Assembly (NCBI GenBank): GCA_049513715.1
Contig: JBEKVV010000005.1
Coordinates: forward strand, 1 to 64,000
Reading direction: 5' to 3'
Length of the DNA stretch: 64,000 nucleotides
DNA from: Candidatus Bathyarchaeia archaeon
Lineage (GTDB): Archaea > Thermoproteota > Bathyarchaeia > 40CM-2-53-6
In this document: one piece after another, positions 4,806 through 28,688 of the stretch
Layout of the letters: every line of letters starts with the position of its first letter
Position numbering within the stretch: the stretch's first letter is position 1
Translations under genes and position numbers: made by a program
Notes under the pieces: model-generated
Databases searched by the model: none
What the model was told of the DNA's origin: nothing
The model's input: only the letters and a program-made list of their open reading frames with translations

Positions 4806-5095
4806 GAAGCCACTCGTCGGGAGAATTGTCGAGTCCGGAGGGACCACTGTAAATCCTCACTGGGTCTTAGCCCATTTGCTGGTTTCGGATATTCCCTTGC
4901 CAGCCTAAGCCTCGTTTCCTATCGGGCCGGTGGGACAAGTAGCCACGAACTCGGAACGTCAACACTTAGCCGTAACGACTCCGATTCGACTACCAAACTA
5001 GGCTATGTGTCTGTCGGTGCGTGGTCGTGGGACCACTGGGAATTCACCCCACTATTTGTTGGGGTTAACGCCTCTCTCCGACCGAGCTTCTAAGA

Positions 5096-6076
5096 ATGCG
5101 AGGTTCAATTTCCGATGCTCGCACCACTAGACCACACACAAAACCACTAAACCCATTACGTGTACAGAGAAGATTGGTAATCAAAGGATTGGTCAAGACG
5201 TCGACCACTACGCACAGCCCTAAGATTGCACCTGAGTATCTTCTAAAGCGAACAGCACGTCAATTGATTTCCTCCGCGATCCTATGCTGGGTTTGGATAT
5301 CATTGACTCTGGCTGTCGTGACAGAGGTGCAACTTGCGGCATTGTGGCGGCCAGTACTTCTAATAGCGTCTGCAGTCAGCTGCTTCGCTCTGATGAGGAA
5401 TCGAATCCTTGATCGGATTTACAGAAGAATTAGCTTTGCAACGCACTATCAACTCAAAGTCACCCTCGCAATCCCATTCAGTGTCTTCCTGGGGATGGTA
5501 ATTGGCTTAATGCTGTTTGGCCGGTGGGACTCGCAACGTGAAATATTGGGCCCCATAGTCGCTGTCGGATTGGTAATTTGTTCGATCCTATGGTCCATCG
5601 GGCCAATGGTTTCCGACAAAAGCGAAGCGAGTCTGCTGCTCACTCAATGCATTTACGAGATCGGGAAAGAGAACAAGATCCCAGATTGCTTTCGCTGGCT
5701 TGACCGCGGTTTGTATAAGATAATCAGAATTCTGAGACAGTATGGCATTAGAGTTCATGGTCCCACACTAAGATTGGGAGCAAGGTTGTATTGCCTTGAA
5801 CGAAAGACTAACCTGAACTCCTTATTGGTCCTGTCCAAAGCAATCATGAAGATGGAAGAATCTGAGCCATTTAGGGAACTCAGGGCCGCGGTCGAGGCGC
5901 TTACAGACACTGCAGAGAAGGCCATCGCTAGAGGCGTCTCACCGCAGCCTCGCATCGTCGACTACTTGGACTTCAGATATCTGTCCCTAAAGAATGTATA
6001 TCAGATGTTAGGCATAATTCTCGCAATACTCGCGATATTGATTTCCATAACAACTGGGCATCTCTCGTTGCGCTAG
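5096..6076 (+). CDS. hypothetical multi-pass membrane protein (true start probably TTG ~5189, downstream of J1)
   Basis: long ORF with about 5 hydrophobic segments. Confidence 0.6.
   Translation: MRGSISDARTTRPHTKPLNPLRVQRRLVIKGLVKTSTTTHSPKIAPEYLLKRTARQLISSAILCWVWISLTLAVVTEVQLAALWRPVLLIASAVSCFALMRNRILDRIYRRISFATHYQLKVTLAIPFSVFLGMVIGLMLFGRWDSQREILGPIVAVGLVICSILWSIGPMVSDKSEASLLLTQCIYEIGKENKIPDCFRWLDRGLYKIIRILRQYGIRVHGPTLRLGARLYCLERKTNLNSLLVLSKAIMKMEESEPFRELRAAVEALTDTAEKAIARGVSPQPRIVDYLDFRYLSLKNVYQMLGIILAILAILISITTGHLSLR
5103..5143 (+). repeat. junction J1 (tRNA-3'-mimic type)
   Basis: GTTCAAtttccgatGCTCGCACCActagacCACACACAAAA. Confidence 0.8.
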
Positions 6077-6274
6077 CACCGCGTCTCTGGCGCAACTGAG
6101 TTATTCGATCCTCTGATCATCGTTATGTTCCATAAACCGATAACCCTCACAAGTGGAAAAAGCCCTACTGAAAACTGTGACCGAAGAGAATGGGGATAGG
6201 ACCGGCGTTGTTCTAAAGTTTAGAATCGGGGTTATGCTATGCGGTTTACGTTATCTTAGAAGTCGCCGGTAGGC

Positions 6275-6303
6275 TTTTTGTGTGTGCGCACCAGCATACC
6301 CAC
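6275..6303 (+). repeat. junction J2
   Basis: TTTTTGTGTGTG CGCACCAGCATAC CCAC; 6279-6303 is the exact reverse complement of 12885-12909. Confidence 0.85.
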
Positions 6304-6475
6304 CCCTCCAGAAAAAATTCCGTTATTGCCAACCACCACAAACAGATCACCCAACCATCCACACCACGAAAATCCCCAGGCCCAATGCGATTATTTACGT
6401 ATGCGAGGGACCTAAGTAATGGCAGTCAGAGCACAGAGAAATTAAGTCAAACGGAGAGGAAAGGCGTTTGGTGAT

Positions 6476-7222
6476 TTGAGTGGAATTGATTGGCTACTCA
6501 ACAAAGTCAAGAAAGTCAGAAGTCGGCTCTCACTTGGAAAAATGCTATGGCTGCTTTTCGTTATACTGCTGATGGTAGGCACCTACTACGTGTTCAATCG
6601 TGATAGATATGTGGGGGCGTCTCAGGATTTTGGACCTGTGGAAGTCTCAGGGTCAGGTGGGCGGTCACCTTTCAATGTGACTCTGAGACTTCAATGCGGC
6701 TCCGAAGATAATTCGTACTTGTCAGACGTAGCAGACATCAATTGTGAGATTCTGACGAGATCTAAAGCGGAACCAATTCCAGAAATGGATTTCCGTGTTC
6801 TTATAATGAACGCGAGAAATCAGACAGTGGTAGAATGCAATAGCGCTGTGGAGAACATCAGTAATGTTTCCGAGAGCTCAAGCTTTTGTCTTAATTCTAT
6901 GGGCAATAGGTACTTCGAACTTCCTACGGGGGACTTCAGAGTAGTAATCAAACAATTTTCTATTATGGGAGGAGGAGTTGTCGTAACAAAAGCAAACCCC
7001 GTGATGTTCCGCGGAGAATTGCATGTAATCTCGGCCTTTGAGAAGCAAACTAGATTATCGCAGGACGGTACATCACTTGCCACATTCCTCGCCTTTCTAT
7101 TCATCATCCCAACCACGGTGTTCGCATTACGTTCTTTCTTGATGGAATCCACGGGCAAGAACAGAACAGAAGACTCGCCCGAGGACTCGAATCCCAACAA
7201 GGCGCGCTATTGTTTTGAATAG
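6476..7222 (+). CDS. hypothetical membrane-anchored protein
   Basis: 248-aa ORF with N- and C-terminal TM segments. Confidence 0.6.
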   Translation: MSGIDWLLNKVKKVRSRLSLGKMLWLLFVILLMVGTYYVFNRDRYVGASQDFGPVEVSGSGGRSPFNVTLRLQCGSEDNSYLSDVADINCEILTRSKAEPIPEMDFRVLIMNARNQTVVECNSAVENISNVSESSSFCLNSMGNRYFELPTGDFRVVIKQFSIMGGGVVVTKANPVMFRGELHVISAFEKQTRLSQDGTSLATFLAFLFIIPTTVFALRSFLMESTGKNRTEDSPEDSNPNKARYCFE

Positions 7223-7267
7223 TTCCAGAGCCCTCTCTGTTCTCGTCTTGATCGTTGCTGGCAGTTA

Positions 7268-7663
7268 ATGCCATTTGCCAGTTTTGCCCTGGCTAGTGAC
7301 CACGCAAGCCCATTTGATTTGACATTCACGAGAACTGCAACTTACACCAACACGACTACCTTGACAAGTTCAAAGGTGGTGATGATTACATTCATGCGGA
7401 CCAGTACACTTCACAATCTCTCGCGGGGTCTGGGCGTAACAATTGTCGGGTCTGCAGGCATCGGATCGACCATGTCGATTACCACGTACACCAATCAACC
7501 AAGCGATGGTTCGCCAGCTCTATTCGGTGCTTTGCTGCTTTGCGTGCTTGGGCTGGTGTTAGTGATGTTGCGGAAGCTCAGAAGGTCGCAAAAAGATCAT
7601 AGGTTGAAGATCTTGGTATCGATGGTGCGACCGGTTGAATCTGATCCGTCGGTTCGTGCGTAA
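7268..7663 (+). CDS. Thr-rich small membrane protein or fragment
   Basis: Thr/Ser-rich with a C-terminal TM and basic tail. Confidence 0.35.
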   Translation: MPFASFALASDHASPFDLTFTRTATYTNTTTLTSSKVVMITFMRTSTLHNLSRGLGVTIVGSAGIGSTMSITTYTNQPSDGSPALFGALLLCVLGLVLVMLRKLRRSQKDHRLKILVSMVRPVESDPSVRA

Positions 7664-7666
7664 TTC

Positions 7667-7695
7667 TGTGTGCGCGCACCACTAAACCCAACACA
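7667..7695 (+). repeat. junction J3
   Basis: TGTGTGCG CGCACCACTAAAC CCAACACA. Confidence 0.75.
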
Positions 7696-7751
7696 TCACA
7701 ACACAACCCAACAAAACTGGACAGTACAGCAAGTCAGCAAAAGCTACGTCA

Positions 7752-7782
7752 TGTGTGCGCGCGCACCATTGGACCACACACA
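7752..7782 (+). repeat. junction J4
   Basis: TGTGTGCGCG CGCACCATTGGAC CACACACA. Confidence 0.8.
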
Positions 7783-7855
7783 GGCGAAAACCATAGCCAC
7801 GTCAAACTAGATACAGTATGCAAGATGTGGTCGCCATTACCCTCTATGAGACGTT

Positions 7856-8977
7856 TTAGGAGTGCCTAACAATCCACGACCACAATGCTGCTCGCACCGC
7901 CTCGGTCATAGCTTCCGTAAGGCCTGATGTTTCGATTGTTTCAAAGGCTCCTGAACTGAAAACCTCCTGATAAGTAAATACGGGGGGCATTCCAACATGC
8001 TGATCTCCGAGTTGGAACTGATCTCTAAGTTCCTTCAAGACTGCGCTAGTTGGGATTCGGAAGCGCGATTCGAAATCATGTGCAAAACTGTTACGGAACT
8101 TCTCTAGGAAGTTGATGAAGTCATCATAGCGCGAGTTGCCCGTTCCTCCAAGCTTGAACTCTGGTGGAGCGTTTCTCCATACTTGAACCGTAGATGCTAG
8201 TTTGTCACGCAAGGATTGATCAAGTGCTTTATCGAAGAAATTCCTCAGCGCACGACGACTTCCATGCCTAACTAGATAGAACTCGTAAATGTCCAGGAGA
8301 CTCTTGGGACTCATTTCCTTCTGTTCTCGTATGGCCTGTTCCACTTCGGACACAGTGTCTTTCGCTTTCAGCCAGTCGCCGTACTGGAAATATGGACTTG
8401 ACCGACCTAGAGATTCGGCGCAGGTACATAGAATGAACAGGGCCCATGACGCTGCACCTCCTGGAAAGAGATTGGCAGTTTCTACTCCCTGCGTTTGAAG
8501 CAAATCGACAGCCTGGAGTCGATGTATGATGGATTCGATGAACCCTATCGGATGGTTCGCACGTTCCTCAGTTGATGGAACCTAATCATCTGGTAATTCC
8601 ATCAACGATTCTAGGCGTTTATCAAACTCGCTCCGACTGCAAACCATCTCTACCTGTTTGAAAATCGCATTTGACTCTGCTTCATAGCGACGTATTAGGA
8701 GAACAACTTTTGAATTCCAGGAAACATGGTAAATTCGAAGCTTCACAGCGCCTGCCAAGGGCGTGTTTGAAACACTCGTGAACGAATGATCATAACCAGA
8801 CTTTACTTCCAAGCCCTCGGCGTCTTCAGGTGGTTCGCTGCTAACTCCGAAATATAGAATTGCCCCTAATCTGAGAAGTTTAGGGTTTATTCCGAGGAGA
8901 CCCGATGCTTTGAGCTCCAGCCCATTATATCGAAATCTGAAAGGATCTAGCATTGAGTCCAACTCAGCCGTTCTCAA
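7856..8977 (-). pseudogene. putative HEPN-domain protein interrupted by an in-frame TAG at 8582-8584 (ORFs 8582..8977 and 7856..8503)
   Basis: both ORFs share a frame with 26 open codons between them; FRNSFAH RxxxxH motif in the C-terminal half. Confidence 0.55.
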
Positions 8978-9215
8978 GGATTAGACCATTCGCAACATTG
9001 TTTGGGTTGGCTTGCCTGCTTAAGTTTTGGTGTTTGCTCCTTCAATCGTACGAACCCCCAGAACCGTCCTCCATAAATGACAATCACAGAACAGCTTCGT
9101 TTCGCGGGAGTTCCGTCGCGTACTTCGCCACATATGTTTGGGTTGACGAATATCCGAGGACGGATTGTTGGAGGATCCCTCCCTTGACTTCAGATACAGA
9201 AAAAGGCACAGGGTG

Positions 9216-9254
9216 TTTTCGTGTGTGTGTGCTCACCAGCTAGTACCACACACA
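9216..9254 (+). repeat. junction J5
   Basis: TTTTCGTGTGTGTGTG CTCACCAGCTAGTAC CACACACA. Confidence 0.75.
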
Positions 9255-9328
9255 GAGCCACTCCGCACGAAAAGCACCGCAAGTCTGAAAGGAATGTTCC
9301 GAACTAAGACAGGACAGTTGAATCGAAA

Positions 9329-10885
9329 GTGCCGTCCTTTGCGCTGGTGGTTGATAGCCAAAATGTCTCTGGACGAATTGAAGGGCTAACAGCCGCCTTA
9401 GGACCTAGAGCTGGGGGCACTTCTTCGAGCGAACTAGAAAAGAAAGACTTTTCGAGAGGGAGCGCCGCGTTCGATCCTCGGACGCTAACGAATCCAAAGA
9501 CAAAACTAGCCATTGATTATGCGCCGGCAGGCAACGCAGAAGAAACTCTCGAATTCATTTCTCAAATCAAGAGCGTTTTTCCAGAGATGGCATTCGAATC
9601 CGAGTTTCTCCAACAATTAAGGTCAAGTGCCCAAAGTTTCAAGTATGTTCGGAGTCGCGGTTTCCTGAGCTTATGGAGAGAAGGCCTATTCGGTCAAGAC
9701 CTCGAATTCTTTCTGACTGACTCGCAACAGGACGACGATGTTGTCATAGCTGAAGATCACTTGGACACAAGCCGAAAACAAATCGTATTCGTCAGGACTT
9801 GGCAACAGATGTCGGCATTTGTCGAAAAAGTGCTTGAACCTTGGTTGGTGAGCGGGAAGGTCAAGCCTATTCAGGACTTTGGCGAGACCGCTGTTCCATT
9901 CTTTACGGGTCCCACCTCTCATGCATTGTCAGAATCGCGCCAGCGATGGCTGAGTCTTCCAGTTCCATCAATGATTTACTCGCGAGCATGGGCCGAACAG
10001 AAACCGGACTATCCCAACAAGGACTGGGCAATAATCAGTTCGAAGCGGACATATGCCAACCTTCACCACGCCTTCGCGGTTCTGCTGGAAAGATCCCAGG
10101 AACGTATTAGATTCGGTTGCATCTTTTGCCTTCCTGAAAATAGAGGCCGAGTTGTGGATGTTCATGTCGACCCGAACGAGACGAATTACAAATTGATTGT
10201 CCAATGTGAGACAACAGTTCCTCTCAAGCTCAAAGTGTCCTGTCTTCAGGATTCAAATGTCACTGAGGTATACAATGCCGATGCCTCTGCTACTCAGGCG
10301 TTTGCGGTTGACTACGCTCCCACAGAGGTCATAGCCGAACTACTGGGACCGGATTTGGTCGACAGATCTGCATATCACAATAGAGCGGGCGCCATCACAA
10401 CTTCCATTCAACCTAAGCCTCAGGTAGTGGTCGCGACTCAGATAGGTCTTCCAGTGCAGCCGCAGGTACTAGCTGGAGCAGAGACCATGATTGCTGCGTA
10501 CGCTCGATTCTTCATAATGGAGAACACATTGAGGGCGCTGGCTAAAGACAGATTCGTGAAGGCATTCGGTGTTCGGTGGGCGAAGGAATTAGCGCCCGTT
10601 CTAATTGCCGGAAAAACTCCCGGAGAACAGGCTCGAGTAAATCAGGTCTTAGTATCAAATCCTGATCAGATCCTTGAGCAGGTCTACTATCGCGATCTCA
10701 ATAGAATAGTTGACAAGTTCTGGTCCTTGTTCGAACCATTATTCCATGATAAGGATAGAACTCTGCTGAAGTTGAAAGAACTGGAGAATCTGAGGAACGA
10801 CATTGCGCACAACCGCGTCCTTGCTAATCACGACATAAAGCGAATTGAAGTATACTACATGGACTTGCTCAGCAATGTACCATGA
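9329..10885 (+). CDS. large protein with C-terminal Swt1-like HEPN domain
   Basis: YARFFIMENTLR...YYRDL..IV...W..F...LENLRNDIAHNR. Confidence 0.75.
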   Translation: MPSFALVVDSQNVSGRIEGLTAALGPRAGGTSSSELEKKDFSRGSAAFDPRTLTNPKTKLAIDYAPAGNAEETLEFISQIKSVFPEMAFESEFLQQLRSSAQSFKYVRSRGFLSLWREGLFGQDLEFFLTDSQQDDDVVIAEDHLDTSRKQIVFVRTWQQMSAFVEKVLEPWLVSGKVKPIQDFGETAVPFFTGPTSHALSESRQRWLSLPVPSMIYSRAWAEQKPDYPNKDWAIISSKRTYANLHHAFAVLLERSQERIRFGCIFCLPENRGRVVDVHVDPNETNYKLIVQCETTVPLKLKVSCLQDSNVTEVYNADASATQAFAVDYAPTEVIAELLGPDLVDRSAYHNRAGAITTSIQPKPQVVVATQIGLPVQPQVLAGAETMIAAYARFFIMENTLRALAKDRFVKAFGVRWAKELAPVLIAGKTPGEQARVNQVLVSNPDQILEQVYYRDLNRIVDKFWSLFEPLFHDKDRTLLKLKELENLRNDIAHNRVLANHDIKRIEVYYMDLLSNVP

Positions 10886-10894
10886 AAAGGTCAA

Positions 10895-11185
10895 GTGATA
10901 GCAATATTCGGTTCGACAGAATGTGACAGAGAACTGGATGATCCTCTGTTCATTTCTAGCAGATCTTCAGCGGTTGATCTTGCAGAACCTTCACCAAAGT
11001 TAGTGGGACAGGATGACCGTGAACTAAGAGCTAGGATTCTCAGGATGACTCAGTCCGAGGCAAGAGACCTTGGCATCGGGAAGAGCACGCTTCATTACCT
11101 ACGCAAAAGAACGCGCAGTAGGACACAGATGAGGCTTTACTCTAATACACACGGTAAACTACAACTTCTCTGCTCCAAGACATGA
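10895..11185 (+). pseudogene. cas1: C-terminal HTH fragment of a casposon-type (solo) Cas1 / casposase
   Basis: DLAEPSPKLVGQDDRELRARILRMTQSEARDLGIGKSTLHYLRK resembles the C-terminal HTH extension of family-2 casposases; catalytic domain absent. Confidence 0.7.
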
Positions 11186-12252
11186 CAAACCGCAAATTCT
11201 GCGTTTTCTGTGGCGCAGAGCCAAAGACACACAGCCGAGAGCACATAATTCCCCGATGGCTGATTGAGCTTACGGGCGACCCGAAGAGAAAGGCGATTTT
11301 TGGTCCATTTTGGAATACTGCGAAAAGAAAGTTCGAAATGCACACATTCGCTTTTGATCAATTCACGCTCCCTTCATGCGCAGCATGCAACATGGAGTTC
11401 TCGAAGCTTGAGAAATCCACAAAGCAGATTATAGAGTCTATTTTGGAAGTGAAGCCGCTTGACTCTAGAGATTTGCTTGTTCTTCTGTCGTGGCTAGACA
11501 AGGTGAGGGTTGGGTTATGGCTTGCATACTACCATGTTCAAAAGAACGTTTGGCAAATTGTTCCACAGTTTTTTGTCAAGTCACGGATGGACATGTCGGA
11601 TCGAATGGTACTCATCTATAGGTCAGATCTACGAGACCCACGATTACGTGTCGAGGGGCATACGGTCCCTGCATTCCAATACCAACCAACTTGCTTTGTG
11701 CTCAGTGTAAACGAATTCATTCTGTTCAACATCTCTACCAGCTTCTTACTCTCCGAACGAATGGGACTCCCCTATGCCCATCGACTGGCCTACACGAATA
11801 CTCCTCAAATCGAGACAACCCTGGCTAGAGGAAGGAATCGCATCGTGTATCCTTTGGTCAGATTCAAATATGATCATCGTTGCGCCGAGATATTCCAGCC
11901 GATATTCACCTCTTTAGTTGGAGATGCATATTACCAAAACGAACATGTGCAGTCGATTAGCCTTGACCATTCGAAAGGAGTTGGAAGGGTCTTCTACTAT
12001 GATAAGCCATTCGTACAGGAGTACCCCAACTCCAAGTCGATCAGTTGGGTGCCTAAATGGACGTGGAGGGATGACGCTCTGTGGAAAGTTATCCGAAAAC
12101 AGTGGCTAGAAATCCAATTACATCTTTTTGAGTACGGCCCATGCGCGACCAAGATAAGTCTTGACCATGTCGACAAACCAAAGAAACAATTAGTCCAATC
12201 ACAAGTGCAGACATCAAAGAAGATAAGCGGAATGTTCCTCGACTCGATTTGA
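11182..12252 (+). CDS. HNH endonuclease-domain protein
   Basis: FCVFCG...SREHIIPRWL...SCAACN. Confidence 0.75.
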   Translation: MTNRKFCVFCGAEPKTHSREHIIPRWLIELTGDPKRKAIFGPFWNTAKRKFEMHTFAFDQFTLPSCAACNMEFSKLEKSTKQIIESILEVKPLDSRDLLVLLSWLDKVRVGLWLAYYHVQKNVWQIVPQFFVKSRMDMSDRMVLIYRSDLRDPRLRVEGHTVPAFQYQPTCFVLSVNEFILFNISTSFLLSERMGLPYAHRLAYTNTPQIETTLARGRNRIVYPLVRFKYDHRCAEIFQPIFTSLVGDAYYQNEHVQSISLDHSKGVGRVFYYDKPFVQEYPNSKSISWVPKWTWRDDALWKVIRKQWLEIQLHLFEYGPCATKISLDHVDKPKKQLVQSQVQTSKKISGMFLDSI

Positions 12253-12271
12253 GAAATATTCCAAAGAAGGA

Positions 12272-12300
12272 TTTTGTGTTTGTGCGCACTAATAGACCCC
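12272..12300 (+). repeat. junction J6
   Basis: TTTTGTGTTTGTG CGCACTAATAGAC CCC. Confidence 0.7.
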
Positions 12301-12322
12301 AGTATGAAAGAGAGCTATCAAG

Positions 12323-12847
12323 ATGCAAGCTGATTTCGACCGTTTTATGACAGGCCTGGAGATCGCGGGTTCAAGGATTGACGCGCACTATTTCCAAATC
12401 AGAGTTTCCGGAGCAGAGGACCCAATATATCGTGAACGAGTCTATTGCTATGAATTATATCATCAGCTGCGCGTGGCGTTAGGCGACATTTTCGAATACA
12501 AACTCGATGGAGAACTTGACAAGAAGAATCACTCAATTCTAGTGAGATTAGGTGCAAGGAAGCCTGATCTTGTCGTGCACGTCCCCGGTAATATGGATGG
12601 AAACCTCGTCGTGATTGAAGTCAAGAAGGTTGAGACAAGAAAGCAGCTTCTTGAAAACGATCTTTGCAAATTGATGAAGTTCTTGGATGACGGTAATTAC
12701 TTTCGGGGGATTATGCTAGTATATGGTGATGGCTATCAGAAACTGCCGGATTGGATCAGAGACAAAGTCCTTCAGTTACAGGAGTCACGCCTCGCTCTGG
12801 TGTGGCATGCAGGACCTGGAGAAAGCCCCAGGATTATCAATGGTTGA
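12323..12847 (+). CDS. PD-(D/E)XK nuclease-like protein
   Basis: ERVYCYELYHQLR, GELDK, KPDLVVH...VIEVK. Confidence 0.7.
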   Translation: MQADFDRFMTGLEIAGSRIDAHYFQIRVSGAEDPIYRERVYCYELYHQLRVALGDIFEYKLDGELDKKNHSILVRLGARKPDLVVHVPGNMDGNLVVIEVKKVETRKQLLENDLCKLMKFLDDGNYFRGIMLVYGDGYQKLPDWIRDKVLQLQESRLALVWHAGPGESPRIING

Positions 12848-12878
12848 ATTTGAACAGTCGTCGTTTGTCGTCAGAAAA

Positions 12879-12915
12879 GTGTGTGTGGGTATGCTGGTGC
12901 GCACACACACCAAAA
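12879..12915 (-). repeat. junction J7 (inverted; most symmetric copy)
   Basis: reverse complement reads TTTTG GTGTGTGTG CGCACCAGCATACC CACACACAC. Confidence 0.85.
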
Positions 12916-12920
12916 CGTCG

Positions 12921-12966
12921 GTTCAAACTACGTTGCTCGCACCATTAGAACCACACGCACCGAAAA
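12921..12966 (+). repeat. junction J8 (tRNA-3'-mimic type)
   Basis: GTTCAAactacgttGCTCGCACCAttagaacCACACGCACCGAAAA. Confidence 0.8.
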
Positions 12967-13194
12967 CCAATCAAACCCAGACGCCGATGAAGGCGCGGGA
13001 GAATTCCCACGTAATAATTAAGACCGCTATCAACAAGACTCAGGCCATGGCATACTTCACGATTTCAAATCTCGAAAGACGCAACGGATGCAAAATGAAA
13101 ACGTATCAACAATATGCCAGAATGTGGTACAGAAATTGGATTAGGTTATTATGTCCGTGTAGATGGTTGCAGCCCTTGATTTCGGAGGTTTTGT

Positions 13195-14481: not shown

Positions 14482-15457
14482 TATTGATGCTGAGTCGATG
14501 GCCCAACAGGCGCTTGAGGCGTGGGGACTCCGGTCATCCAGGCGCGAGCTGTTTTCTGTCTCGGAGAATATTGTATTTCGTGTCGATACCGGTGACGGCA
14601 AGGCACTGCAGCTATGTCTTCACCGTTCGTGGTATCACAATTTGCAGGAACTCATCTCCGAACGCATGTGGACACGCGCTTTAAGCGACTACGGCATCAG
14701 TACGCCAGTCCCGGTTCCTGCCCTGGACGGTAATGACTACGTTCTGGTTCGCGGCAGTCTGAATGGTGAGGCTCGCTACGCAGGTATGAATCAATGGGTT
14801 GATGGTGAAACAATGCACCATATCATTGCCCGCAGCGAGGATTTCACGGTTTATTTCAGGCGCCTGGGCAAAATGGCTGCGCGGATACACAACCAGGCAT
14901 CGTACTGGGAGCCGCCTGCGGGGTTCAGGCGCCATTCCCTAGACGCTGATGGACTAATGGGGCTATCGCCATGGTGGGGCCCGTTCTGGGCAGCACCGTA
15001 CCTCACCGCAAACGAACGGGTAAGATTCGAGCATCTTCGTGAAAGGGTTCATAACCGGCTGTTGTGGCTGGACACGGGCCCGGATACTTACAGCATGATT
15101 CATGCGGACCTGTGCCCGGGAAACCTGATAATCAACGGCGAACATCTGCATATCATTGATTTTGACGATGCCGGGTTCGGTTGGCACATGTATGAGCTGG
15201 CGGCAGGACTGTATAATTACCAGGATCATCCACGTTTTTCCGAAATGGTGAGCGCCGTGTTCGAAGGTTATCGAGAGGTCAGGCAGCTCGATGCAGAATC
15301 GGCTGCGCTGCTGAACCTGTTTTTACTGGTTAGGGCACTGGCAATCGTCGGCTGGCGTGCCGCCCGGCCGGAGCTGTCAAAACCACCAGAGTGGAGCCGC
15401 GGCCCCAAATGGACGGTCAATAAGGCCCTTTCCCTCTCCGCCGAGCTGGGTCTTTAA
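14468..15457 (+). CDS. APH / type II homoserine kinase-like phosphotransferase
   Basis: SENIVFRV, IHADLCPGN, IIDFDD; overlaps the aminotransferase. Confidence 0.88.
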   Translation: MGTVNIDAESMAQQALEAWGLRSSRRELFSVSENIVFRVDTGDGKALQLCLHRSWYHNLQELISERMWTRALSDYGISTPVPVPALDGNDYVLVRGSLNGEARYAGMNQWVDGETMHHIIARSEDFTVYFRRLGKMAARIHNQASYWEPPAGFRRHSLDADGLMGLSPWWGPFWAAPYLTANERVRFEHLRERVHNRLLWLDTGPDTYSMIHADLCPGNLIINGEHLHIIDFDDAGFGWHMYELAAGLYNYQDHPRFSEMVSAVFEGYREVRQLDAESAALLNLFLLVRALAIVGWRAARPELSKPPEWSRGPKWTVNKALSLSAELGL

Positions 15458-15465
15458 CCTTCACT

Positions 15466-15798
15466 GTGACAGGCTCAAAGACTTCCACTGTCTGGACGAC
15501 AGTCACGCAAATCGTGGGCGGGGTTTCCACAAGCGTGGTCTATACAACCAGCACTAGCACTGTAACCGTCACCAATGCTTCGACCACGATGTCAACAACT
15601 ACGACTCCATCTACGACCAAGTCAACAACCACTCCTGTAACCACATCAACGCCCCATTGCAGGGAATATGCACCGCCCCTGTTCCCTAGTTTCACATCAA
15701 TCGTCGCTTCCTCGGGCTTGCTAGGAGTCGCCGTAACCATTGGGAGGAGAGCCATTCCAATAATCGACGCTCATAAGCAAAGAGATCCCGTTTTTTGA
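15466..15798 (+). pseudogene. Thr-rich cell-surface protein fragment
   Basis: T/S low-complexity stalk plus hydrophobic end, no clear N-terminus. Confidence 0.35.
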
Positions 15799-16350
15799 TG
15801 GGTTTTCGTTCGTTGACGAATAATGGCCCGAGAGGGAGAGAGATTTGCACGGGGGAAGATGGCGGACATTGCAATATGACCAAGACCCCCGAAATCACTA
15901 GCACCACTAGCACCTCGGACGCAGTCCTCTAGAAAAGTGGGGACGAAAGGTCAGGGAGAACGAAAGTATCGTACGCACAGCTATCGCAATTCACGCAGAT
16001 ATCGCACAGGGGTTTTCTCTGTGGTAATCTCGCATAGTGGAACCCATCTCACTTTGCGCTCCGTGAGTCGCTTAAGGTCGGCTGATGTGGAATTTTCTCC
16101 CCTCTAGGAATATCCACAGGCCGTTCCCGTTGTTGGTTCTCTGAATCCTATCCGCGTACGCCCACGGCATCACAAAATGCGTGCATTTCGTCGTTTCCTT
16201 TTCAGCGTTCGACTCGTCCTTCTGCGCTGAAAGATGACGCGGTGAAGTTTTCGGGTTAGTCTGCGGTCAGGCGTTTCTTGGGACCGAATTTCGTAACCGT
16301 TAGGGCGTACTTTCCACTTCTCCAGGTAGAGGAGGTTCCAATCATTCTTT

Positions 16351-17133
16351 GTGTCGTCGATGATTCGTCGGAGGTCCAATGCTTCCCTCCGGAAATCTGA
16401 GCCGAGAGCGGATTGGATCATGTTCAGCAGCAAGTCGGGTAGCTTCATTTTCGGAGTTCAGATTCCCGCTCGGATAGTAGGATTAGTGGGGTTCTCTGCG
16501 GCCGTCTACAATTCAAGTTGGATACAGAATGATCGCATCTGGTTGTCCTCAGAGCTCACAGTCAACGAGTTCTACAGTACGCAAGACGATGTCACGCTGG
16601 TCTGGCTTCAACCTAATCTTAACTCGACTAGTTACGAGATCATGGAAATCGGGTTCTATTTCTTGTGGAAAAACAGTGTTGGTCAGCTGGACTTCTCGGA
16701 ATACAGCCTTATCCTTCCTGTTAGTAGCGTTCCTGAATATTCAATCTACTACTTTCCGCCGAGTCCGTTCGCCACTACCCAGGAAATTCTAATAAAATCG
16801 ATCCTTACTTCATACAACATCAATTCGCTTATCGTTTGGGTATCTTTGCCCCCGTCAGGTGTGGTAACAAGCGCCTTTCCAGAACCTGACGCGTTCATTC
16901 CTCAGTCTTCTAGGTTATTGCTTGTCTGGAATCAAACCCGAATATCCGAATCAAAACCGCTGCAAACTTCGATCAGTGTGACGTTCAGGATGCCCACTCA
17001 AGCGTTGCAGCGCGACGAATCGGTCTTCTGGGCAGGTATAATCTTGGGTGTTGGGGCTGCATTGGCCGTTGAGAGTTTGGAGTTGTTTGCACGACCTCGC
17101 GTCAGGAGCAAGAATCGGAAACAGGTGGCCTGA
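16351..17133 (+). CDS. hypothetical membrane-anchored protein
   Basis: beta-rich body, C-terminal TM and basic tail. Confidence 0.5.
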   Translation: MSSMIRRRSNASLRKSEPRADWIMFSSKSGSFIFGVQIPARIVGLVGFSAAVYNSSWIQNDRIWLSSELTVNEFYSTQDDVTLVWLQPNLNSTSYEIMEIGFYFLWKNSVGQLDFSEYSLILPVSSVPEYSIYYFPPSPFATTQEILIKSILTSYNINSLIVWVSLPPSGVVTSAFPEPDAFIPQSSRLLLVWNQTRISESKPLQTSISVTFRMPTQALQRDESVFWAGIILGVGAALAVESLELFARPRVRSKNRKQVA

Positions 17134-17377
17134 TGGTCTTGAGCCACCACCAAGATTCGCCACGTAGAAAAACGCAAACAAAGACCTAACGCAAAGGCGT
17201 GAAACAGATGGAGTGTTCAATGTGCCGGGCAATGAAATTTCCAGTTCTAGTCAGGATATTGTGGAATGCATGATAGCGGAGTCATAGCGTTGACTTCCGA
17301 GCGTTTGGATAATCGTAATCCGTCCGTTTTCTCCTTTCAAACATATTCCAGGTCAGATAAGTCAGGGCATGCCTGGG

Positions 17378-17611
17378 TTAGGTGGATTGAGGGGGCTTGC
17401 TTACCGCATTTTCTTGGTCTTTGGTTAGCTCATCGTATTGTTGCGGGTGTTTTTCCTTCCAGTGGTCTTCCATGAGTTTGAGTATTTCGTGTACGGCTCG
17501 ATGGTTCGTCCATCTTCTGTTTTTGCATTGTTTGCAGACCCATTCGTTCTTGTCTGATTCGTAGTCAGCCATTTCCGTGAAATAGGGTTTGTTGGTCACT
17601 TTTCCTTTCAA
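17378..17611 (-). CDS. small C2H2-like zinc-finger hypothetical protein
   Basis: WVCKQC...HWKEKH. Confidence 0.35.
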   Translation of the reverse strand: MKGKVTNKPYFTEMADYESDKNEWVCKQCKNRRWTNHRAVHEILKLMEDHWKEKHPQQYDELTKDQENAVSKPPQST

Positions 17612-17878
17612 GGTTTCTCATTCAGACTCTTCTTGGGTTGATCTTCGGATTTCTTGGTTACTCGTGATTGGTTTTGAACGTGCTCAGCTGGGTTTTCAGC
17701 GAGTTCTGCTTCAACAATCCAGAATCTAGGGCTCTTTGGGTTTTTCAGGTCTAAGAGCATCTGTAATGCGACCACTCTTTGCCTTGGATTGCACTTTCTT
17801 TTTCACGTCAAAGCAGACTACTTGACTGCACTTTCAATTTATGTAATTCCATAGCGCAAACCATGCCAGTGAGAAAGA

Positions 17879-18532
17879 GTGAGCGAATCGTATAATAACT
17901 TCAACAAAATGGCAACCTCAATACTTCAGGAGAATGACAAGTTCTGCAAGTCAAACGACGTTGCGCAAGAGACTGTTATTGAAATTCTGAAGCTCATGAA
18001 GGATGCCATCAATTCCGTTCAGTGGAATGCAGACCTCTTTCCAAAGTTTGCTTTCGTAAACTGTCTGCGCTCTGTTCTAGTCCCAATGTCAAACGCGATC
18101 TATTACAACTTCATGGGAGGCAACCTTCCAGCGTGCTTCGTACAGTTGCGTATTTTGCTGGAGCAACTGGTGAAATGCTTCCTCTCCGACAAAGATTACC
18201 GTGACATCTCACGCTTCCAAGAGAAATTGAGGAGAGTCGAAGATCAAAAGCTCCACTTAACTGAAGCCGTCATTGCCGTCGAACCAAACGCCGAGTCCTT
18301 GTGGAGAAATCTCTCGAACGATTGGGTTCATATGAAGTATTTAGAAAGGCATGTGAGAGTTCTCCTGGAGAGGGGCGACGTGCTAGGATTCAACGTCGTA
18401 GTCCCGATCGATTTCAGTGAAACTGAGCTACCTGAAATACAGGAACTGGGCGAATCTATAAGCCAATTCAGAGCGATCCTAGCAGAAACGGTAGGAAAAT
18501 GGAAAACTGAAGTTTTCAGGAGTCACCAGTGA
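17879..18532 (+). CDS. hypothetical helical protein (possibly HEPN-like)
   Basis: LRILLE and LWRNLSNDWVH motifs; 1 nt from the next gene. Confidence 0.5.
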   Translation: MSESYNNFNKMATSILQENDKFCKSNDVAQETVIEILKLMKDAINSVQWNADLFPKFAFVNCLRSVLVPMSNAIYYNFMGGNLPACFVQLRILLEQLVKCFLSDKDYRDISRFQEKLRRVEDQKLHLTEAVIAVEPNAESLWRNLSNDWVHMKYLERHVRVLLERGDVLGFNVVVPIDFSETELPEIQELGESISQFRAILAETVGKWKTEVFRSHQ

Positions 18533-18533
18533 C

Positions 18534-19253
18534 ATGTCAGAATCAGTTTACGTGCAACCCTTAGCTGTCGAACCAGCCAATCCTACGACACTTGAAGAAC
18601 TTCAAGAAACATACCAGATGAAGCGTGCATTGATTCAGCAGAGAATTGAAGAGCTAAGAAAAGGATGGGAGAAAAGTGATAATGGTATTTTCGCGGAACT
18701 CTGTTACGGCATTCTACTGGCGAGAGAAGATGCTGCTAAAACTCTCCCCTTGGTTGCTGAGTTGGAGAGTAGTAGGCTGTTATTTGACGGTTCAAGCGAC
18801 CAAATTCAAGAATACCTCAGACAGCACCACTATGCCCTTAGAAACAGGTCTAAATACATCGTAGATTGGCGCGGCCGACTCACTGATCAAGGATCGCTAA
18901 GAATCAAGAACATTCTCGAAAACAAATTCAGAACATCGAAGGGTTGGCGCATCTATGCTGCCAGAGAATACTTGGTTTCGCAACATTCTGGAGTTGGTTG
19001 GAAAGTGGCAAGTCAATTCCTAAGAAACATCGGAATCGGATTAGATTGCGGACTGGCACTTCTGGACAGACATATCCAGAAGGAGTTGAGGAAGTTTAAC
19101 TACACCCCGCGAATCTACAAGCAAGCCTTGTGGAAGTCCAAATATCTTCAATACGAGCAGAAAATGCAAGCAATGGCGGAGAACAGCGCAATTCCAATCG
19201 ACGACCTAGACCTTTTGATTTGGTCAAACAGAACTGGTCTGATAATCAAGTAG
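18534..19253 (+). CDS. ogg: N-glycosylase/DNA lyase (OGG2-type 8-oxoguanine glycosylase)
   Basis: FAELCYGIL, HhH GVGWKVASQFLRNIG, LDRHI, C-terminal TGLIIK. Confidence 0.8.
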   Translation: MSESVYVQPLAVEPANPTTLEELQETYQMKRALIQQRIEELRKGWEKSDNGIFAELCYGILLAREDAAKTLPLVAELESSRLLFDGSSDQIQEYLRQHHYALRNRSKYIVDWRGRLTDQGSLRIKNILENKFRTSKGWRIYAAREYLVSQHSGVGWKVASQFLRNIGIGLDCGLALLDRHIQKELRKFNYTPRIYKQALWKSKYLQYEQKMQAMAENSAIPIDDLDLLIWSNRTGLIIK

Positions 19254-19354
19254 GCTTGCGCTACGACTCAGTATCTTGTAGCTGACTTTTCTACCTCCTC
19301 ACTAAAACGAAGCTAAATAGCTCCTCCATTTAGACTTGTCAAGCTTGCAAGCCC

Positions 19355-20815
19355 ATGCCAAACTTAGCGCCTGAATTCGTCCGAAAACTCATACAATCAG
19401 GCATCGAGACAACAAAGTTGGAGCACAAGCTAAGAATCGACATTCATTCCAACAATGGCAAAGCCGAACTGATCAAAGACGTTCTTGCCATGGCAAACGC
19501 CTCTTCCAGCGGCGAAGACACTGGGTACTTGATAATTGGATCGTCAAAGGGTTTTGCATATGACATTTCCGATCTCAAGCTGGACGATGCGACGCTTCAG
19601 CAAATCGTGAATTCAAAAGTGCATCCTCCAATCACCTTCTCCTACACAGAAATCGAAATTCAAGCAGGGATCAGGGTTGGCGTATTTGAAATCCCGAAAA
19701 GTAACGCCAAACCACATTGTGTAAAGCAAGACATCATGGACAATGAAGAAATTCTCCTCCACGAAGGAGAGTGCCTGATAAGACAAGGATCGAGCACAAA
19801 GGAAGCTATGAAGGAAGACTTCGACCAGATGTACGACGAATATGTTGAGTCTGAGCGCCGAAGGATAATGAACGAAGCATTCGAATATGTGCAACGTCAA
19901 AACGTACCGAGTGAGAAGAAGACTACAGACCTCACATACGTTACCTCAGCAAGTCCAAAAGAAATCTCCAATACGGTGATCGAGCTTCTTCGTCAAGGCG
20001 ATACTGTTGGAATGGCGTCGATAGTCAACAACCTCCGTGGAGAACTGATCTCAAGGTGGAAAGATACTGTTGACAAGTCGGAGGAACAAGTCGCCACAAT
20101 AAAGCACACTTTCATCGAACCCGTTATCTCAAGGCTGACCGCGTTGGGAGCTCTCCTCGTTGTTTACGATGCCGAGCAACCCTTCAAGGAGCTCCTTGGT
20201 GCATTCGCGGCCATCTACGAACTCGCGAACAATCTTTCCTATGGAAGACAGCCTGGTATGACAACTAAGAAGCATCTGAGCTGGACTGTGCCCTCGAAGG
20301 AAAGCATGAAGTCTCTATACGCTATAGGAGCAGTTGCTGCATTCAAAGGCAGGCTGAAATTCATCAGACTCATGCTTGACACGAAGATTACTGCAACCAG
20401 ATATTTCACTAACGTAGAGCCCATAATGTCGCATCCGCTCTATGAGTTCACGAGTGGCGAAGGAGATTTCACGGCGTTTTTCGAAGAGGCTAGAAATGAG
20501 ACCTTGGGTTCCAAACAACTCTTCGAATACTTCGATGGAGACAAAGAGAAGCTGATAACAGCATTTTGTGACTTCGACTTTCTCATAATGGCGGCTTTGA
20601 TCCATGAGAATCCCGAAACTGAGAGGTTTCCGAACTTTGCGCGCTACTATCGCAGGAGAATAGAACCGCTCCTGAGTAGGATTTCAAGCGACCCAGGGAG
20701 CTACGTAACAATACTTGGAGACAACCCGACCGGAGCTGTCGATAGTTGCATAGGAAAAGTCAACGAACTGGCTACTCGCGAACCCATAACTTTGATGGGA
20801 TGGAGAGTCCATTAG
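19355..20815 (+). CDS. Schlafen/AlbA_2 domain protein
   Basis: ETTKLEHK, ELIKDVLAMANA, GYLIIG, IRQGSST. Confidence 0.8.
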   Translation: MPNLAPEFVRKLIQSGIETTKLEHKLRIDIHSNNGKAELIKDVLAMANASSSGEDTGYLIIGSSKGFAYDISDLKLDDATLQQIVNSKVHPPITFSYTEIEIQAGIRVGVFEIPKSNAKPHCVKQDIMDNEEILLHEGECLIRQGSSTKEAMKEDFDQMYDEYVESERRRIMNEAFEYVQRQNVPSEKKTTDLTYVTSASPKEISNTVIELLRQGDTVGMASIVNNLRGELISRWKDTVDKSEEQVATIKHTFIEPVISRLTALGALLVVYDAEQPFKELLGAFAAIYELANNLSYGRQPGMTTKKHLSWTVPSKESMKSLYAIGAVAAFKGRLKFIRLMLDTKITATRYFTNVEPIMSHPLYEFTSGEGDFTAFFEEARNETLGSKQLFEYFDGDKEKLITAFCDFDFLIMAALIHENPETERFPNFARYYRRRIEPLLSRISSDPGSYVTILGDNPTGAVDSCIGKVNELATREPITLMGWRVH

Positions 20816-20835
20816 AATTAGTGCATAAGTTCGAG

Positions 20836-21276
20836 GTGGGGCTAGATTGGGGTCGGAGTAATCGTCGAGAATTGAGGCGTTTAGCAGATAGCCCCACCAT
20901 CATTTGATAGAGAGTCCCTTCGGCCCCACGTGGTTGCCCACTTCTTCCACTTCCTATCGAAAGAGGTTCCTGCTAAGGAGTTGAACAAGTGTTTGATATT
21001 TCGCCCGACGATCCAACACTTAGGCTGGCCCTGAAAGCTCTTCAGGCTTAGCCAAACGATCTTGTGTGAACTACGGCGTACCTCGCGGGCGGAAAATCCT
21101 GGTTTGCGCACACCGCTAAGGCCAGTACGGGAACTCCGGAACGGTAACGGTCGTGGTTGTGTAGGTTGGAGTTGTTGTTGTGGTGGGGCCGAAGGTTCCC
21201 ACTTGATGCATCAAGTGGGGCTATCCTAATCGGGGCTCATTTCGAGCCGTTTCCTCCTGCTCGTGCTTAGCCCCAC
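20836..21276. repeat. 94-bp diverged inverted repeat (20836-20929 / 21183-21276) with six GCCCCAC boxes and a perfect 22-bp palindrome at 21198-21219
   Basis: GTGGGGCTA-N42-GATAGCCCCAC-N19-CCTTCGGCCCCAC in both arms with identical spacing. Confidence 0.8.
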
Positions 21277-21283
21277 GCGGTGC

Positions 21284-21469
21284 CTATTTCCTCATGAGTT
21301 TGACTTTGCTGTCCAAGACTTTGCTGTATGCGTCGAGTTTCATGTTGATCTCGATGCGTGGGCCAATGTCGGGTTCGCTTAGCATTGCGAGGCGTAGTTC
21401 GTTGTTTTCTGGCAGGTTCTTTCTCGCCCACTCTTTCGCGGGCACGAAGCTGCTTGTTTCGAGCGGCAT
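21284..21469 (-). CDS. small protein of a type seen in archaeal integrated elements
   Basis: KEWARKNLP...LRLAMLSEPD pattern; recognised from memory only. Confidence 0.4.
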   Translation of the reverse strand: MPLETSSFVPAKEWARKNLPENNELRLAMLSEPDIGPRIEINMKLDAYSKVLDSKVKLMRK

Positions 21470-21475
21470 GAATGA

Positions 21476-21745
21476 TCACTTTTTGCGTTTTCTTCCTCCT
21501 AGTTTTTTCACCCGGCGTTTCCGTTTCCGCAGCAGTGTTTCTCCGAGTGCGTTGGCGATCGCGTTGTCAATTTTGTAGTGTAGTAGTTCGCTCATCTTTT
21601 CGTCTGGAAGTATGGCTAGGTCGCCAAAGCCGGTGATTTGCTCTGTGGTGTAGCCGGAGGTTTGCAGAAAGACCGCCCGCCCTGAACGCAATAGCTCGTC
21701 TGCTTTTTCGCGATCAGATTCGACTTCAGCCAAAGCGGACACCAA
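21476..21745 (-). pseudogene. fragment resembling the C-terminal tail of archaeal tyrosine integrases
   Basis: FLQTSGYTTEQITGFGDLAIL..E.M.ELL; no catalytic domain. Confidence 0.35.
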
Positions 21746-21783
21746 GCTGTGTTTGTCGGATAGGTTTCTTATTTGGTTATAGA

Positions 21784-22131
21784 TTGAATCCCTATCGGTG
21801 CTGGCTTATGACAAATGAGCGTTGGCTTCGTTGGGCAATACGGAAACACTTCCGAGATCGGGGGCTGACTGTGAACATGCGTCCTGTCAAAGTTGGAAAT
21901 GCTACAGTTGACAGGGAAGTCGTTGGACACGGATGGAGAATGGCTCTTGAAATTAAGAGTACAAAAGACGATCTCATTCGAGGGATTGGTCAATGCACAG
22001 AAGCCTTAGTCAGGGGTTATCAATCGGCGGCACTCGTCACATCCGTTCAACGTGCGAAGCGAATTAAACCCGAAGTTTTCCATGAACATCTCGTTTTGTT
22101 AGGTATCGATGCTAAAGGGATGGTTCACTAA
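21784..22131 (+). CDS. small PD-(D/E)XK-like nuclease (possibly degenerate)
   Basis: VD...ALEIKS..DDLIRGIGQC. Confidence 0.5.
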   Translation: MNPYRCWLMTNERWLRWAIRKHFRDRGLTVNMRPVKVGNATVDREVVGHGWRMALEIKSTKDDLIRGIGQCTEALVRGYQSAALVTSVQRAKRIKPEVFHEHLVLLGIDAKGMVH

Positions 22132-22442
22132 GTCTACCCATGAATGCCATTTAGAGTGTCGCGGGTTCATGCTCTGGGGTGGGATTTTCACCCCCGTGGG
22201 TGTGTCCGAAACACCCCACGGTTGGATTTGAACCGAGGGGGGCGAATTGAATTCACCCCGCGAACCTAGGGGTGTCTTTTCATCTTTCGAAAAATCTTCT
22301 GTCAAAGCTCACACCGAAGCGCTATTGGACGATTCAGAAGTTAAACTTCTGGGTGACCTCATTTTCCGATTTTCATTATGATCACGAAATTTCCAAAGTT
22401 CAAATTTGTTCTACCGCAACAATGATGCACACAAAAAGAGGA

Positions 22443-22482
22443 GTTCAAGATCAGCCGCTCGCACCAGCAGACCCACACACAC
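22443..22482 (+). repeat. junction J9 (tRNA-3'-mimic type)
   Basis: GTTCAAgatcagccGCTCGCACCAgcagacCCACACACAC. Confidence 0.8.
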
Positions 22483-22554
22483 TTCGACATGCAAACGACA
22501 ACGGTCCGACGGTCCGGGGGCCGCACCAGTGAGACTACAGACTAAGCGCGACTT

Positions 22555-28666: not shown

Positions 28667-28688
28667 CTTTCTCTTCTTCTCCGTATCA

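Follow-up and report, generated by a model that had tools for sequence, protein, structure and literature searches.

What are three short sequences that end like a tRNA, stand apart from any tRNA gene and are each followed by a run of CACAC? The question arises from the window, by which we mean the whole 64,000-nt stretch (C5:1-64000) of a Candidatus Bathyarchaeia archaeon whose genome (G000; other G-numbers denote relatives) comprises 2.79 Mb in 11 contigs, and in which the sites J1, J8 and J9 share the pattern GTTCAA-N8-GCTCGCACCA. The original prediction regarded them as landing pads that dispense with a real tRNA, and this reading is upheld by Cas1 elements occupying such sites in relatives, by the 14-bp duplication accompanying them and by a casposase remnant within the window itself. 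We consider it about 85 % probable that J1, J8 and J9 are casposon integration sites, a known kind of target (casposon targets at the 3' ends of tRNAs) that here takes an unusual form.

Three leader-type sites and their repeat family

A search of the whole window retrieved the pattern exactly at 5103-5126 (J1), 12921-12944 (J8) and 22443-22466 (J9), always on the plus strand, and not once in 100 dinucleotide-preserving shuffles, so the three sites are real. Seven nucleotides further on (NNNN plus ACC, or AAC in J8) the CACAC run begins, at 5134 in J1 (ACACACAAAA), 12952 in J8 (CACACGCAC) and 22474 in J9 (CACACACAC). A site is built from a leader of ~18 nt, a 14-bp segment CGCACCA-NNNN-ACC and the terminal inverted repeat (TIR) of an element, CACACAC...AAAA. 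In J1, the leader is a pseudo-tRNA T-loop/acceptor segment, GGTTCAATTTCCGATGCT (5102-5119, plus strand), with GTTCAA at -17 to -12 from the 14-mer; its target segment CGCACCACTAGACC (5120-5133, plus strand) is of the same 14-mer class as the duplications flanking the Cas1 elements of relatives. J8 and J9 are further units of leader, 14-mer and TIR with a short TIR remnant ahead of each. J8 consists of the leader GGTTCAAACTACGTTGCT (12920-12937, plus strand) and, at 12938-12968 (plus strand), the 14-mer CGCACCATTAGAAC (12938-12951) with the TIR-like end CACACGCACCGAAAACC; it starts 11 nt after an inverted core copy (12879-12909) within site J7, in agreement with the predicted ~10 bp. J9 consists of the leader GAGTTCAAGATCAGCCGCT (22441-22459, plus strand) and, at 22460-22486 (plus strand), the 14-mer CGCACCAGCAGACC (22460-22473), with 0 mismatches to the core, and the TIR CACACACACTTCG. 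Directly 5' of it lies a degenerate unit (22398-22440, plus strand) of leader-like AGTTCAAATTTGTTCTA, decayed 14-mer CCGCAACAATGATG and TIR remnant CACACAAAAAGA, spanned by an nhmmer match at 22407-22489.

The three sites form part of a leader-type subset among ~75 sites of the genome that share the core CGCACCA-N4-ACCCACACAC. This core matches 87 times at up to 3 substitutions, compared with 8 times in a shuffled genome, and 41 times at up to 1 mismatch, compared with 0 for a reversed-pattern control; a hidden Markov model of the wider motif gave 71 genome matches, many of them at contig ends. At up to 1 mismatch the core was present in 17 of 18 sampled relatives of the genus and in 2 of 12 genomes from other genera of the order, one of these with a single match. 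Among GTDB species representatives, 107 stretches carry the leader form, almost all of them titled Bathyarchaeia. To the left of the core, ~40-43 genome copies carry the tRNA-like arm, ~29 carry GTGTGTG, the inverse of the right arm, and a few lie behind the 3' ends of real tRNAs.

Several features tie this family to transposition. A TIR occupies 34 of the 43 leader copies at a fixed distance. A census of all 386 CGCACCA 7-mers revealed element ends in which GTGTGTG, CGCACCA-NNNN-ACC and unrelated sequence follow each other, and three modules with the identical 14-mer at both ends, namely C5:167006/168047 (GCTG), C3:68434/67533 (GCAT) and C4:201832/204646 (GTAG), where the paired upstream 14-mer fronts a CACAC or a C-run end. 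The 14-mer is retained even where the TIR is missing (GCATACC followed by tgtaacc, GTAGACC by tcctg). Paired 14-mers together with inverted ends are the signature of a transposon with a 14-bp target duplication. Furthermore, a TIR-like CACACACA precedes the leader itself by 4-20 nt in 26 of the 43 copies of this genome and in 46 of 100 copies across species (19 of 2000 random windows), which fits pads borne by elements without proving them; it is plausible that the leader mimics are encoded by elements and travel with them. Short units of TIR plus leader are also arranged in tandem, in 6 pairs spaced 47-63 nt apart (the 14-mer plus an insert of 33-49 nt).

The likeness to tRNA is one of sequence only, without structure. 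The predicted register holds: GTTCAA at -17 to -12 from the C of CGCACCA corresponds to G53-A58 of the real tRNA at C3:86169, and the leaders keep these T-loop letters and the acceptor 3' strand, with a conserved TGCY directly before CGCA (consensus over copies, acgGTTCAAaTTnnGnTGCcCGCACCAnnAGACCCACACACAC), while the T-stem varies. Across 100 distinct copies from this genome and the GTDB species representatives, the five T-stem positions were paired in 51.4 % of cells, compared with 52.9 ± 1.4 % after shuffling of partners, confirming that the stem does not pair. Neither ARAGORN nor Rfam at gathering score reported a tRNA gene in the window, so no 5' half is present, as had been proposed; in the genome no convincing 5' tRNA end stood among the GCG[AG]GC matches listed. 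Thus, the sites display neither a cloverleaf nor a paired T-arm with a complementary 5' acceptor strand, as a tRNA or split-tRNA 3' half would.

The expectation that a host tRNA shares their 3' end was borne out in part. None ends in the full GCTCGCACCA, and several end in ...CGCACCA, which is the sole shared part. Likewise, most host tRNA genes, which encode CCA, have no CACAC behind them, whereas the tRNA at C3:86166-86290 carries a 14-mer and TIR directly 3' (CTGG ACC CACACAC), followed by a region that varies from 0.8 to 11.7 kb among 5 genomes compared. Within a real tRNA gene the 14-mer comprises the last 7 nt (CGC-A-CCA) and the next 7 nt. This tRNA, together with leaders that hold GTTCAA in register, is consistent with insertion at a tRNA 3' end and agrees with the proposal of a tRNA-targeting recombinase, for which the Aciduliprofundum boonei casposase had been named.

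These data also bear on the idea that the sites are passive relics, i.e. tRNA 3' fragments displaced by integrating viruses or plasmids ("gene capture") that never served as targets. Partial tRNA 3' parts do exist in the genome, for instance at C1:573340 (tRNA-Gly-like, from anticodon arm to CCA), which is moreover rich in other tRNA-linked repeats. Yet the pattern of conservation is unlike decay, as T-loop letters and acceptor strand are kept and the T-stem varies unpaired; the leader differs from all real tRNAs found, with CGCACCA alone in common; most copies are TIR-occupied at the fixed distance given above; and Cas1 elements with fresh 14-bp duplications use the mimics. We regard passive origin as very improbable.

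Cas1 elements at such sites in relatives

The evidence that most directly connects the sites to casposons comes from relatives. In a survey of 23 genomes of the genus, matches to PF01867 (Cas1) were found in 12, with 11 in G017 and 0 in the present genome, and many fall in site-rich regions. Close reading of 12 fetched loci yielded three complete Cas1 elements located at sites, each with TIRs and identical 14-mers on both sides. The element of G013 (8,615 bp) stands behind the leader AGTTCAAATCTGGATGCC, is bounded by CGCACCACTATACC and has the ends CACACACACAC...GTGTGTGTG, in which CACACAC is the TIR, as expected if the CACAC arm is an element end. The element of G004 (7,144 bp) is bounded by CGCACCAGCTGACC, with a TIR CCGCCGCC... 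(ends CCGCCGCCGCC.../...GGCGGCGGCGG), and that of G014 (10,965 bp) by CGCACCAGCATACC, with an end CGCCCCCGCC... (ends CGCCCCCGCCGCC.../...GGCGGCGGGGGCGG). The elements of G013 and G014 each have a second one in tandem behind the identical 14-mer. Target-site duplications (TSDs) of the 14-15 bp typical for casposons are therefore present at the three Cas1 elements, the 2 tandem followers and the 3 modules of the present genome, and TIRs at the three Cas1 elements and at window junctions with GTGTGTG/CACACAC ends.

The encoded Cas1 proteins (404-410 aa) score 175-180 bits against PF01867, and those of G013 and G004 are 58 % identical; the casposase genes of G013 and G014 lie at L171:11167-12399 and L175:9680-10894, respectively. 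They pass the generic Cas1 cut-off of NCBIfam and none for a CRISPR subtype; they lie outside CRISPR-cas loci, and no cas2 was seen among the scanned open reading frames (ORFs) of the elements. Their best PDB match is 6OPM (E 7e-71, residues 9-404), the Methanosarcina mazei casposase-DNA complex, whose 14-bp TSDs with a conserved 5'-CGCA lie at a tRNA-Leu 3' end (PMC6977970). This enzyme depends on the TSD together with 30 bp of upstream tRNA sequence and on its C-terminal helix-turn-helix (HTH), and activity is lost on mutating CGCA, the four bases before CGCA or an upstream motif (PMC6977970). For A. boonei, the reported minimal target consists of a 15-bp TSD plus 18 bp of the tRNA-Pro 3' end matching the T-psi-C loop (PMC5137440).

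Two of these loci hold further features. Behind the casposase of the G014 element (L175, G014:C3) follow genes for an HNH endonuclease and for a Thoeris ThsB-like protein with a TIR domain (8901-9398, 10896-11660), which constitute defence-type cargo. In another locus of G013 (L172, G013:C8:11500-31499), a 2.8-kb segment (local 8579-11378) with little beyond a Cas1 gene lies between inverted 14-mers, the reverse complement of CGCACCACTAGACC and CGCACCATTAGACC, in the same arrangement as J7/J8.

An alternative is that the sites are attachment (att) sites of a tyrosine integrase, or cassettes of integron or pdif type, in which a conserved CGCACCA overlap with arms would let circular cassettes recombine both with tRNA ends and with one another. 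The palindromic arms GTGTGTG...CACACAC around an asymmetric centre do resemble a core recombination site, the sites delimit 1-3 kb modules of unrelated genes, the non-identical 14-mers of the window's row would arise more easily by exchange at a fixed overlap, and in one IMG/VR contig (L139) a site lies 270 nt from a tyrosine integrase (Zn-ribbon). However, 8 of 23 genomes of the genus, the present one included, encode homologues of that integrase, with sites at 0 of 14 loci, and we take the adjacency in L139 as coincidence on this ground. Only 2 solid PF00589 genes are present in the genome, and no site adjoins either of them; genome searches detected no serine recombinase, Sulfolobus spindle-shaped virus (SSV)-type integrase or Y1 transposase; no IntI or other integrase was found linked to the sites. 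A 14-bp centre is too long for the overlap of a tyrosine recombinase, and it is Cas1 elements that occupy the sites with 14-bp duplications. Site-specific recombination of this kind is thus very improbable. As for the enzyme, a tyrosine integrase was rejected as a candidate on these grounds, and no recombinase family was enriched among ORFs within 3 kb of 74 sites.

A probable fossil row of modules in a genome-specific island

All sites of the window are contained in a genomic island (4806-28150, right border approximate) between a radical-SAM gene (3729-4805) and the block 28289-29114. In 7 of 9 orthologous loci of the same genus, homologues of 28289-29114 come ~0.1-1.1 kb after the radical-SAM gene, which makes the ~23 kb from 4806 to ~28150 specific to this genome; G018 has a different insert of 15.5 kb at the locus, and a search over 20 kb failed to locate the right flank in one relative. 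Sites are absent from all 9 loci. The island sites lie at 5120, 6287, 7675, 7762, 9232 and 12286 (plus strand), 12901 (minus strand), and 12938 and 22460 (plus strand), and they bound modules of 0.07 to 9.5 kb with mutually unrelated genes (HEPN-domain, Schlafen/AlbA_2, Ogg glycosylase, aminotransferase, kinase, KaiC-TPR and several ORFs without family match).

This distribution bears on a further reading, in which the repeats are repetitive extragenic palindromic (REP)-type host elements or bidirectional terminator hairpins (UUUUGUGUGUGUG...CACACACACAAAA) with no link to mobility. The sites are indeed intergenic, near gene ends with runs of T and A, and the palindromic form can fold. Against this stand their lack at the 9 orthologous loci, their clustering at contig ends and in variable regions, the coincidence with TIR and TSD of Cas1 elements, the missing Rfam match and the finding that a search of the genome revealed no Y1 transposase (PF01797) of the REP-associated tyrosine transposase (RAYT) type. 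A host function of this sort is, in our view, hardly credible.

On the casposon reading, which we favour, the row behind J1 has an order in which leader, 14-mer, E1, 14-mer, E2, 14-mer, E3, 14-mer, E4, core, E5 and 14-mer follow one another. E1 (5134-6286, plus strand; 1.15 kb) contains one ORF without family match and has TIR-like ends that can be read directly, ACACACAAAA at its start and TTTTTGTGTGTG at its end. At junction 2 (6275-6309, plus strand; class A/Crun), this right TIR TTTTTGTGTGTG is followed by the 14-mer CGCACCAGCATACC (6287-6300) and the C-run end CACCCCTCC. Junction 3 (7666-7699, plus strand) consists of CTGTGTGCG, the 14-mer CGCACCACTAAACC (7675-7688) and the degenerate end CAACACATCAC, and junction 4 (7752-7785, plus strand), only 73 nt away, a distance that equals E3, of TGTGTGCGCG, the 14-mer CGCACCATTGGACC (7762-7775) and ACACACAGG. 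Junction 5 (9216-9259, plus strand) comprises TTTTCGTGTGTGTGTG, the degenerate core CTCACCAGCTAGTACC (9232-9247) and ACACACAGAGCC. Behind it lies E5 (9248-12285, plus strand), a decayed casposon with a HEPN-domain gene (9329-10885; matches to HEPN_Swt1 and PADLOC PDC-M34B), a casposase remnant and a 356-aa ORF, closed by junction 6 (12273-12299, plus strand), in which TTTTGTGTTTGTG and the degenerate 14-mer CGCACTAATAGACC have no TIR behind them. J7 (12879-12915) is inverted, on the minus strand, and on the plus strand reads GTGTGTGTG, GGTATGCTGGTGCG (the reverse complement of CGCACCAGCATACC) and CACACACACCAAAA. Positions 6279-6303 and 12885-12909 form an inverted pair, I1, perfect over 25 nt and bracketing 6.6 kb.

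The casposase remnant (10949-11161, plus strand; detected by tblastn and protein alignment) comprises 71 aa of the C-terminal HTH region that align at 49 % identity (E 1e-21) with the G014 casposase (residues 331-401), and lacks the catalytic part; the ORF at 10895-11185 holds these last 71 residues. Matches by tblastn extend to all 18 Cas1 loci searched, several of which overlap. Five such C-terminal remnants exist in the genome, 4 of them in site-rich regions, and since they lie outside the Pfam domain, the Pfam search for Cas1 drew a blank and they surfaced by tblastn alone. Casposases are hence probably dead in the present genome. A second casposon trace adjoins the TIR of J9, where a gene for a KaiC-like ATPase with TPR (22555-24657, minus strand; Pfam) matches L175:15713-17176, inside the G014 element, at 68 % identity over 459 aa. 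Near other sites of this genome we noted two paralogous proteins of ~715 aa (L002:6269-8422 and L003:4901-7048, on C11 and C3), whose Pfam matches (DUF7671, RIP, DUF7081) are weak, repeated and partial and place them in no clear family.

The following points weigh against casposon integration. No intact casposase was found in the present genome, either by the Pfam Cas1 search or by tblastn with the proteins of relatives; for this reason the pads are probably fossil here. Neither did the three Cas1 elements reveal a PolB, among 38 scanned ORFs (selected at a length of at least 90-110 aa) or in six-frame searches with PF00136 and PF03175 in 5 genomes, and strictly they are for that reason casposon-like elements rather than casposons. 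Repeated use of one target predicts identical 14-mers, as in G013 and G014, and the window's row deviates from this: its 14-mers keep CGCACCA and ACC and differ centrally (CTAG, GCAT, CTAA, TTGG and others). Of the 107 same-strand 14-mer pairs that lie within 15 kb of each other in the genome and fetched loci, only 12 are identical, with a chance expectation of ~7 % as estimated from the frequencies of common N4 words. Furthermore, the segment behind J8 (12952-22397) has a TIR-like start and no matching GTGTGTG end, some sites form inverted pairs, which a casposon model does not predict, and that the enzyme reads the leader is suggested by analogy to A. boonei and M. mazei. A simple TSD model was rejected as sufficient for the window's row, as the central 4 nt change between adjacent 14-mers and no 14-bp TSD could be recognised within the row itself.

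Public sequence data inform on the row in the following respects. DNA of the window is present in 24 peat or wetland sequencing runs, with no RNA run among them. Logan contigs of 4 public runs show the window's order and orientation only (4700-12907, and 12880-22221 onward), with a break at 12880-12907. Apparent "joints" in contigs were cross-matches to other genomic copies (e.g. the C5:214489/214539 unit), neither excisions nor empty sites, and so provide no population evidence either way. A self-comparison of the genome returned no long multi-copy element and one 0.78-kb module common to C5 and C6, with one border at a site. The repeats break assemblies, and sites gather at contig ends and in variable regions.

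Proposed mechanism and relation to known systems

We propose that a Cas1-family casposase with a C-terminal HTH would recognise the leader together with CGCA, where the target starts, and attach both 3' ends of the element at a spacing of 14 bp, whereupon gap repair would duplicate the 14-mer. Repeated use of the leader-proximal 14-mer would then build tandem rows with junctions of GTGTGTG, 14-mer and CACACAC. The window, in which casposases are probably dead, would contain, within the 23-kb island, the fossil remains of a row made up of one decayed casposon and small modules without a casposase; the small modules were presumably moved in trans.

The closest relatives of this arrangement are the family 2 casposons of M. 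mazei, which likewise possess a casposase of ~400-430 aa with a C-terminal HTH, TIRs and a 14-bp CGCA TSD (PMC6977970, PMC4779613). They also target a tRNA 3' end, where the enzyme requires upstream tRNA sequence (PMC6977970). Methanosarcina spp. also have tandem elements with one shared TSD between them, and HNH and TPR cargo (PMC4779613). The Bathyarchaeia sites match this system in the T-loop leader, the TGCY before CGCA, the 14-bp segment with a free middle, the TIRs and the tandem rows. They differ in that the three elements examined have no PolB, in that 7 nt of the tRNA (CGC-A-CCA, CCA being encoded) lie within the TSD instead of the 4 bp indicated for M. mazei, in TIRs made of simple CA or GC repeats, and in ~75 site copies per genome with many casposase-less modules and most leaders outside tRNA genes.

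A. boonei shares the combination of a TSD with ~18 bp of upstream tRNA T-psi-C end, and thus a leader-repeat logic, but has a 15-bp TSD, a real tRNA-Pro target and PolB, and the accessible parts of PMC5137440 and PMC6614799 do not describe free-standing leader mimics. Targets of this type in principle permit tandem arrays with the newest casposon upstream, according to the first of these (PMC5137440). In CRISPR (Cas1-Cas2), too, an upstream leader guides a Cas1 enzyme to the first repeat, growth occurs at the leader end, and the 6 pairs of short tandem units of 47-63 nt in the present genome are similar in form; however, repeats here measure 14 bp rather than 25-50 bp, and what is inserted are kb-sized elements or stereotyped TIR-plus-leader units in place of foreign spacers. 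Integron cassettes are comparable as rows of unrelated 1-3 kb gene modules between short conserved sites, but IntI and attC are lacking here and the sites match TIR and TSD of Cas1 elements. Finally, miniature inverted-repeat transposable elements (MITEs) are likewise small non-autonomous units with the ends of an autonomous element, for which mobilisation in trans would apply here as well.

Searches of the literature listed no paper with an account of casposons, casposase-less modules or detached leader mimics in Bathyarchaeia; the words casposon and Bathyarchaeota both occur in PMC6393860. New with respect to the papers searched are the three elements without PolB, the dozens of small casposase-less modules and the leader mimics off tRNA genes.

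The CRISPR adaptation machinery is presumed to descend from casposons; to our knowledge, those studied so far are few, low-copy, PolB-bearing and located at real tRNA or protein genes. The present lineage displays casposon chemistry, i.e. the 14-bp CGCA duplication and the T-loop leader, at dozens of sites per genome, and is distinct in its leaders off tRNA genes, its PolB-less elements and its rows of small cargo modules including defence-type genes. It thereby offers a natural series of target variants for what a casposase reads, and may show the origin of leader-repeat architecture. The casposon link also explains part of the Bathyarchaeia "tRNA-tail repeat" islands. On the practical side, the repeats mark acquired DNA and disrupt assemblies.

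A more far-reaching proposal, which we consider unlikely, is that the target itself is portable: a unit of ~35-50 nt, composed of a casposon end and a tRNA-like leader, would travel with elements and recreate leader plus 14-bp repeat wherever it lands, and casposases acting in trans would stack casposase-less, PolB-less modules there, which may carry HEPN, TIR-domain, Schlafen-like and other genes. If true, such a target would constitute a natural Cas1-driven leader-repeat platform for gene capture, and the short tandem units, each a 14-bp repeat with an insert of 33-49 nt, would look intermediate in form between the insertion of a casposon and a CRISPR array.

Some observations concern other repeats and genes. 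A second repeat family with 43 copies in G000 (e.g. C5:166964, C5:206464, C2:8933, C11:8493), TCAGAGATGGGGCAGGGGATTTCAACCCCAATTTACCGGTACATATAAGC, combines a reverse-complement-like tRNA 3' end with a TATA-like box and is located 3' of real tRNAs as well as immediately 5' of a number of casposon leaders. The homologues of the radical-SAM gene (3729-4805) in G014, G001, G004, G007 and G011 contain an insert of ~1 kb in a single frame of ~580-730 aa, placed between residues ~94 and ~88-91 and intein-like in appearance, and the copy in the window is uninterrupted. In 2.79 Mb, ARAGORN reported 9 tRNAs without and 33 with the intron option. A 205-nt segment at C5:220117-220321 (minus strand), which starts with GCGGGGG, ends in CCCCCGCACCA and has a good T-arm, is probably a multi-intron tRNA missed by both ARAGORN and Rfam; it adjoins an Xer-like tyrosine recombinase (C5:218585-219544).

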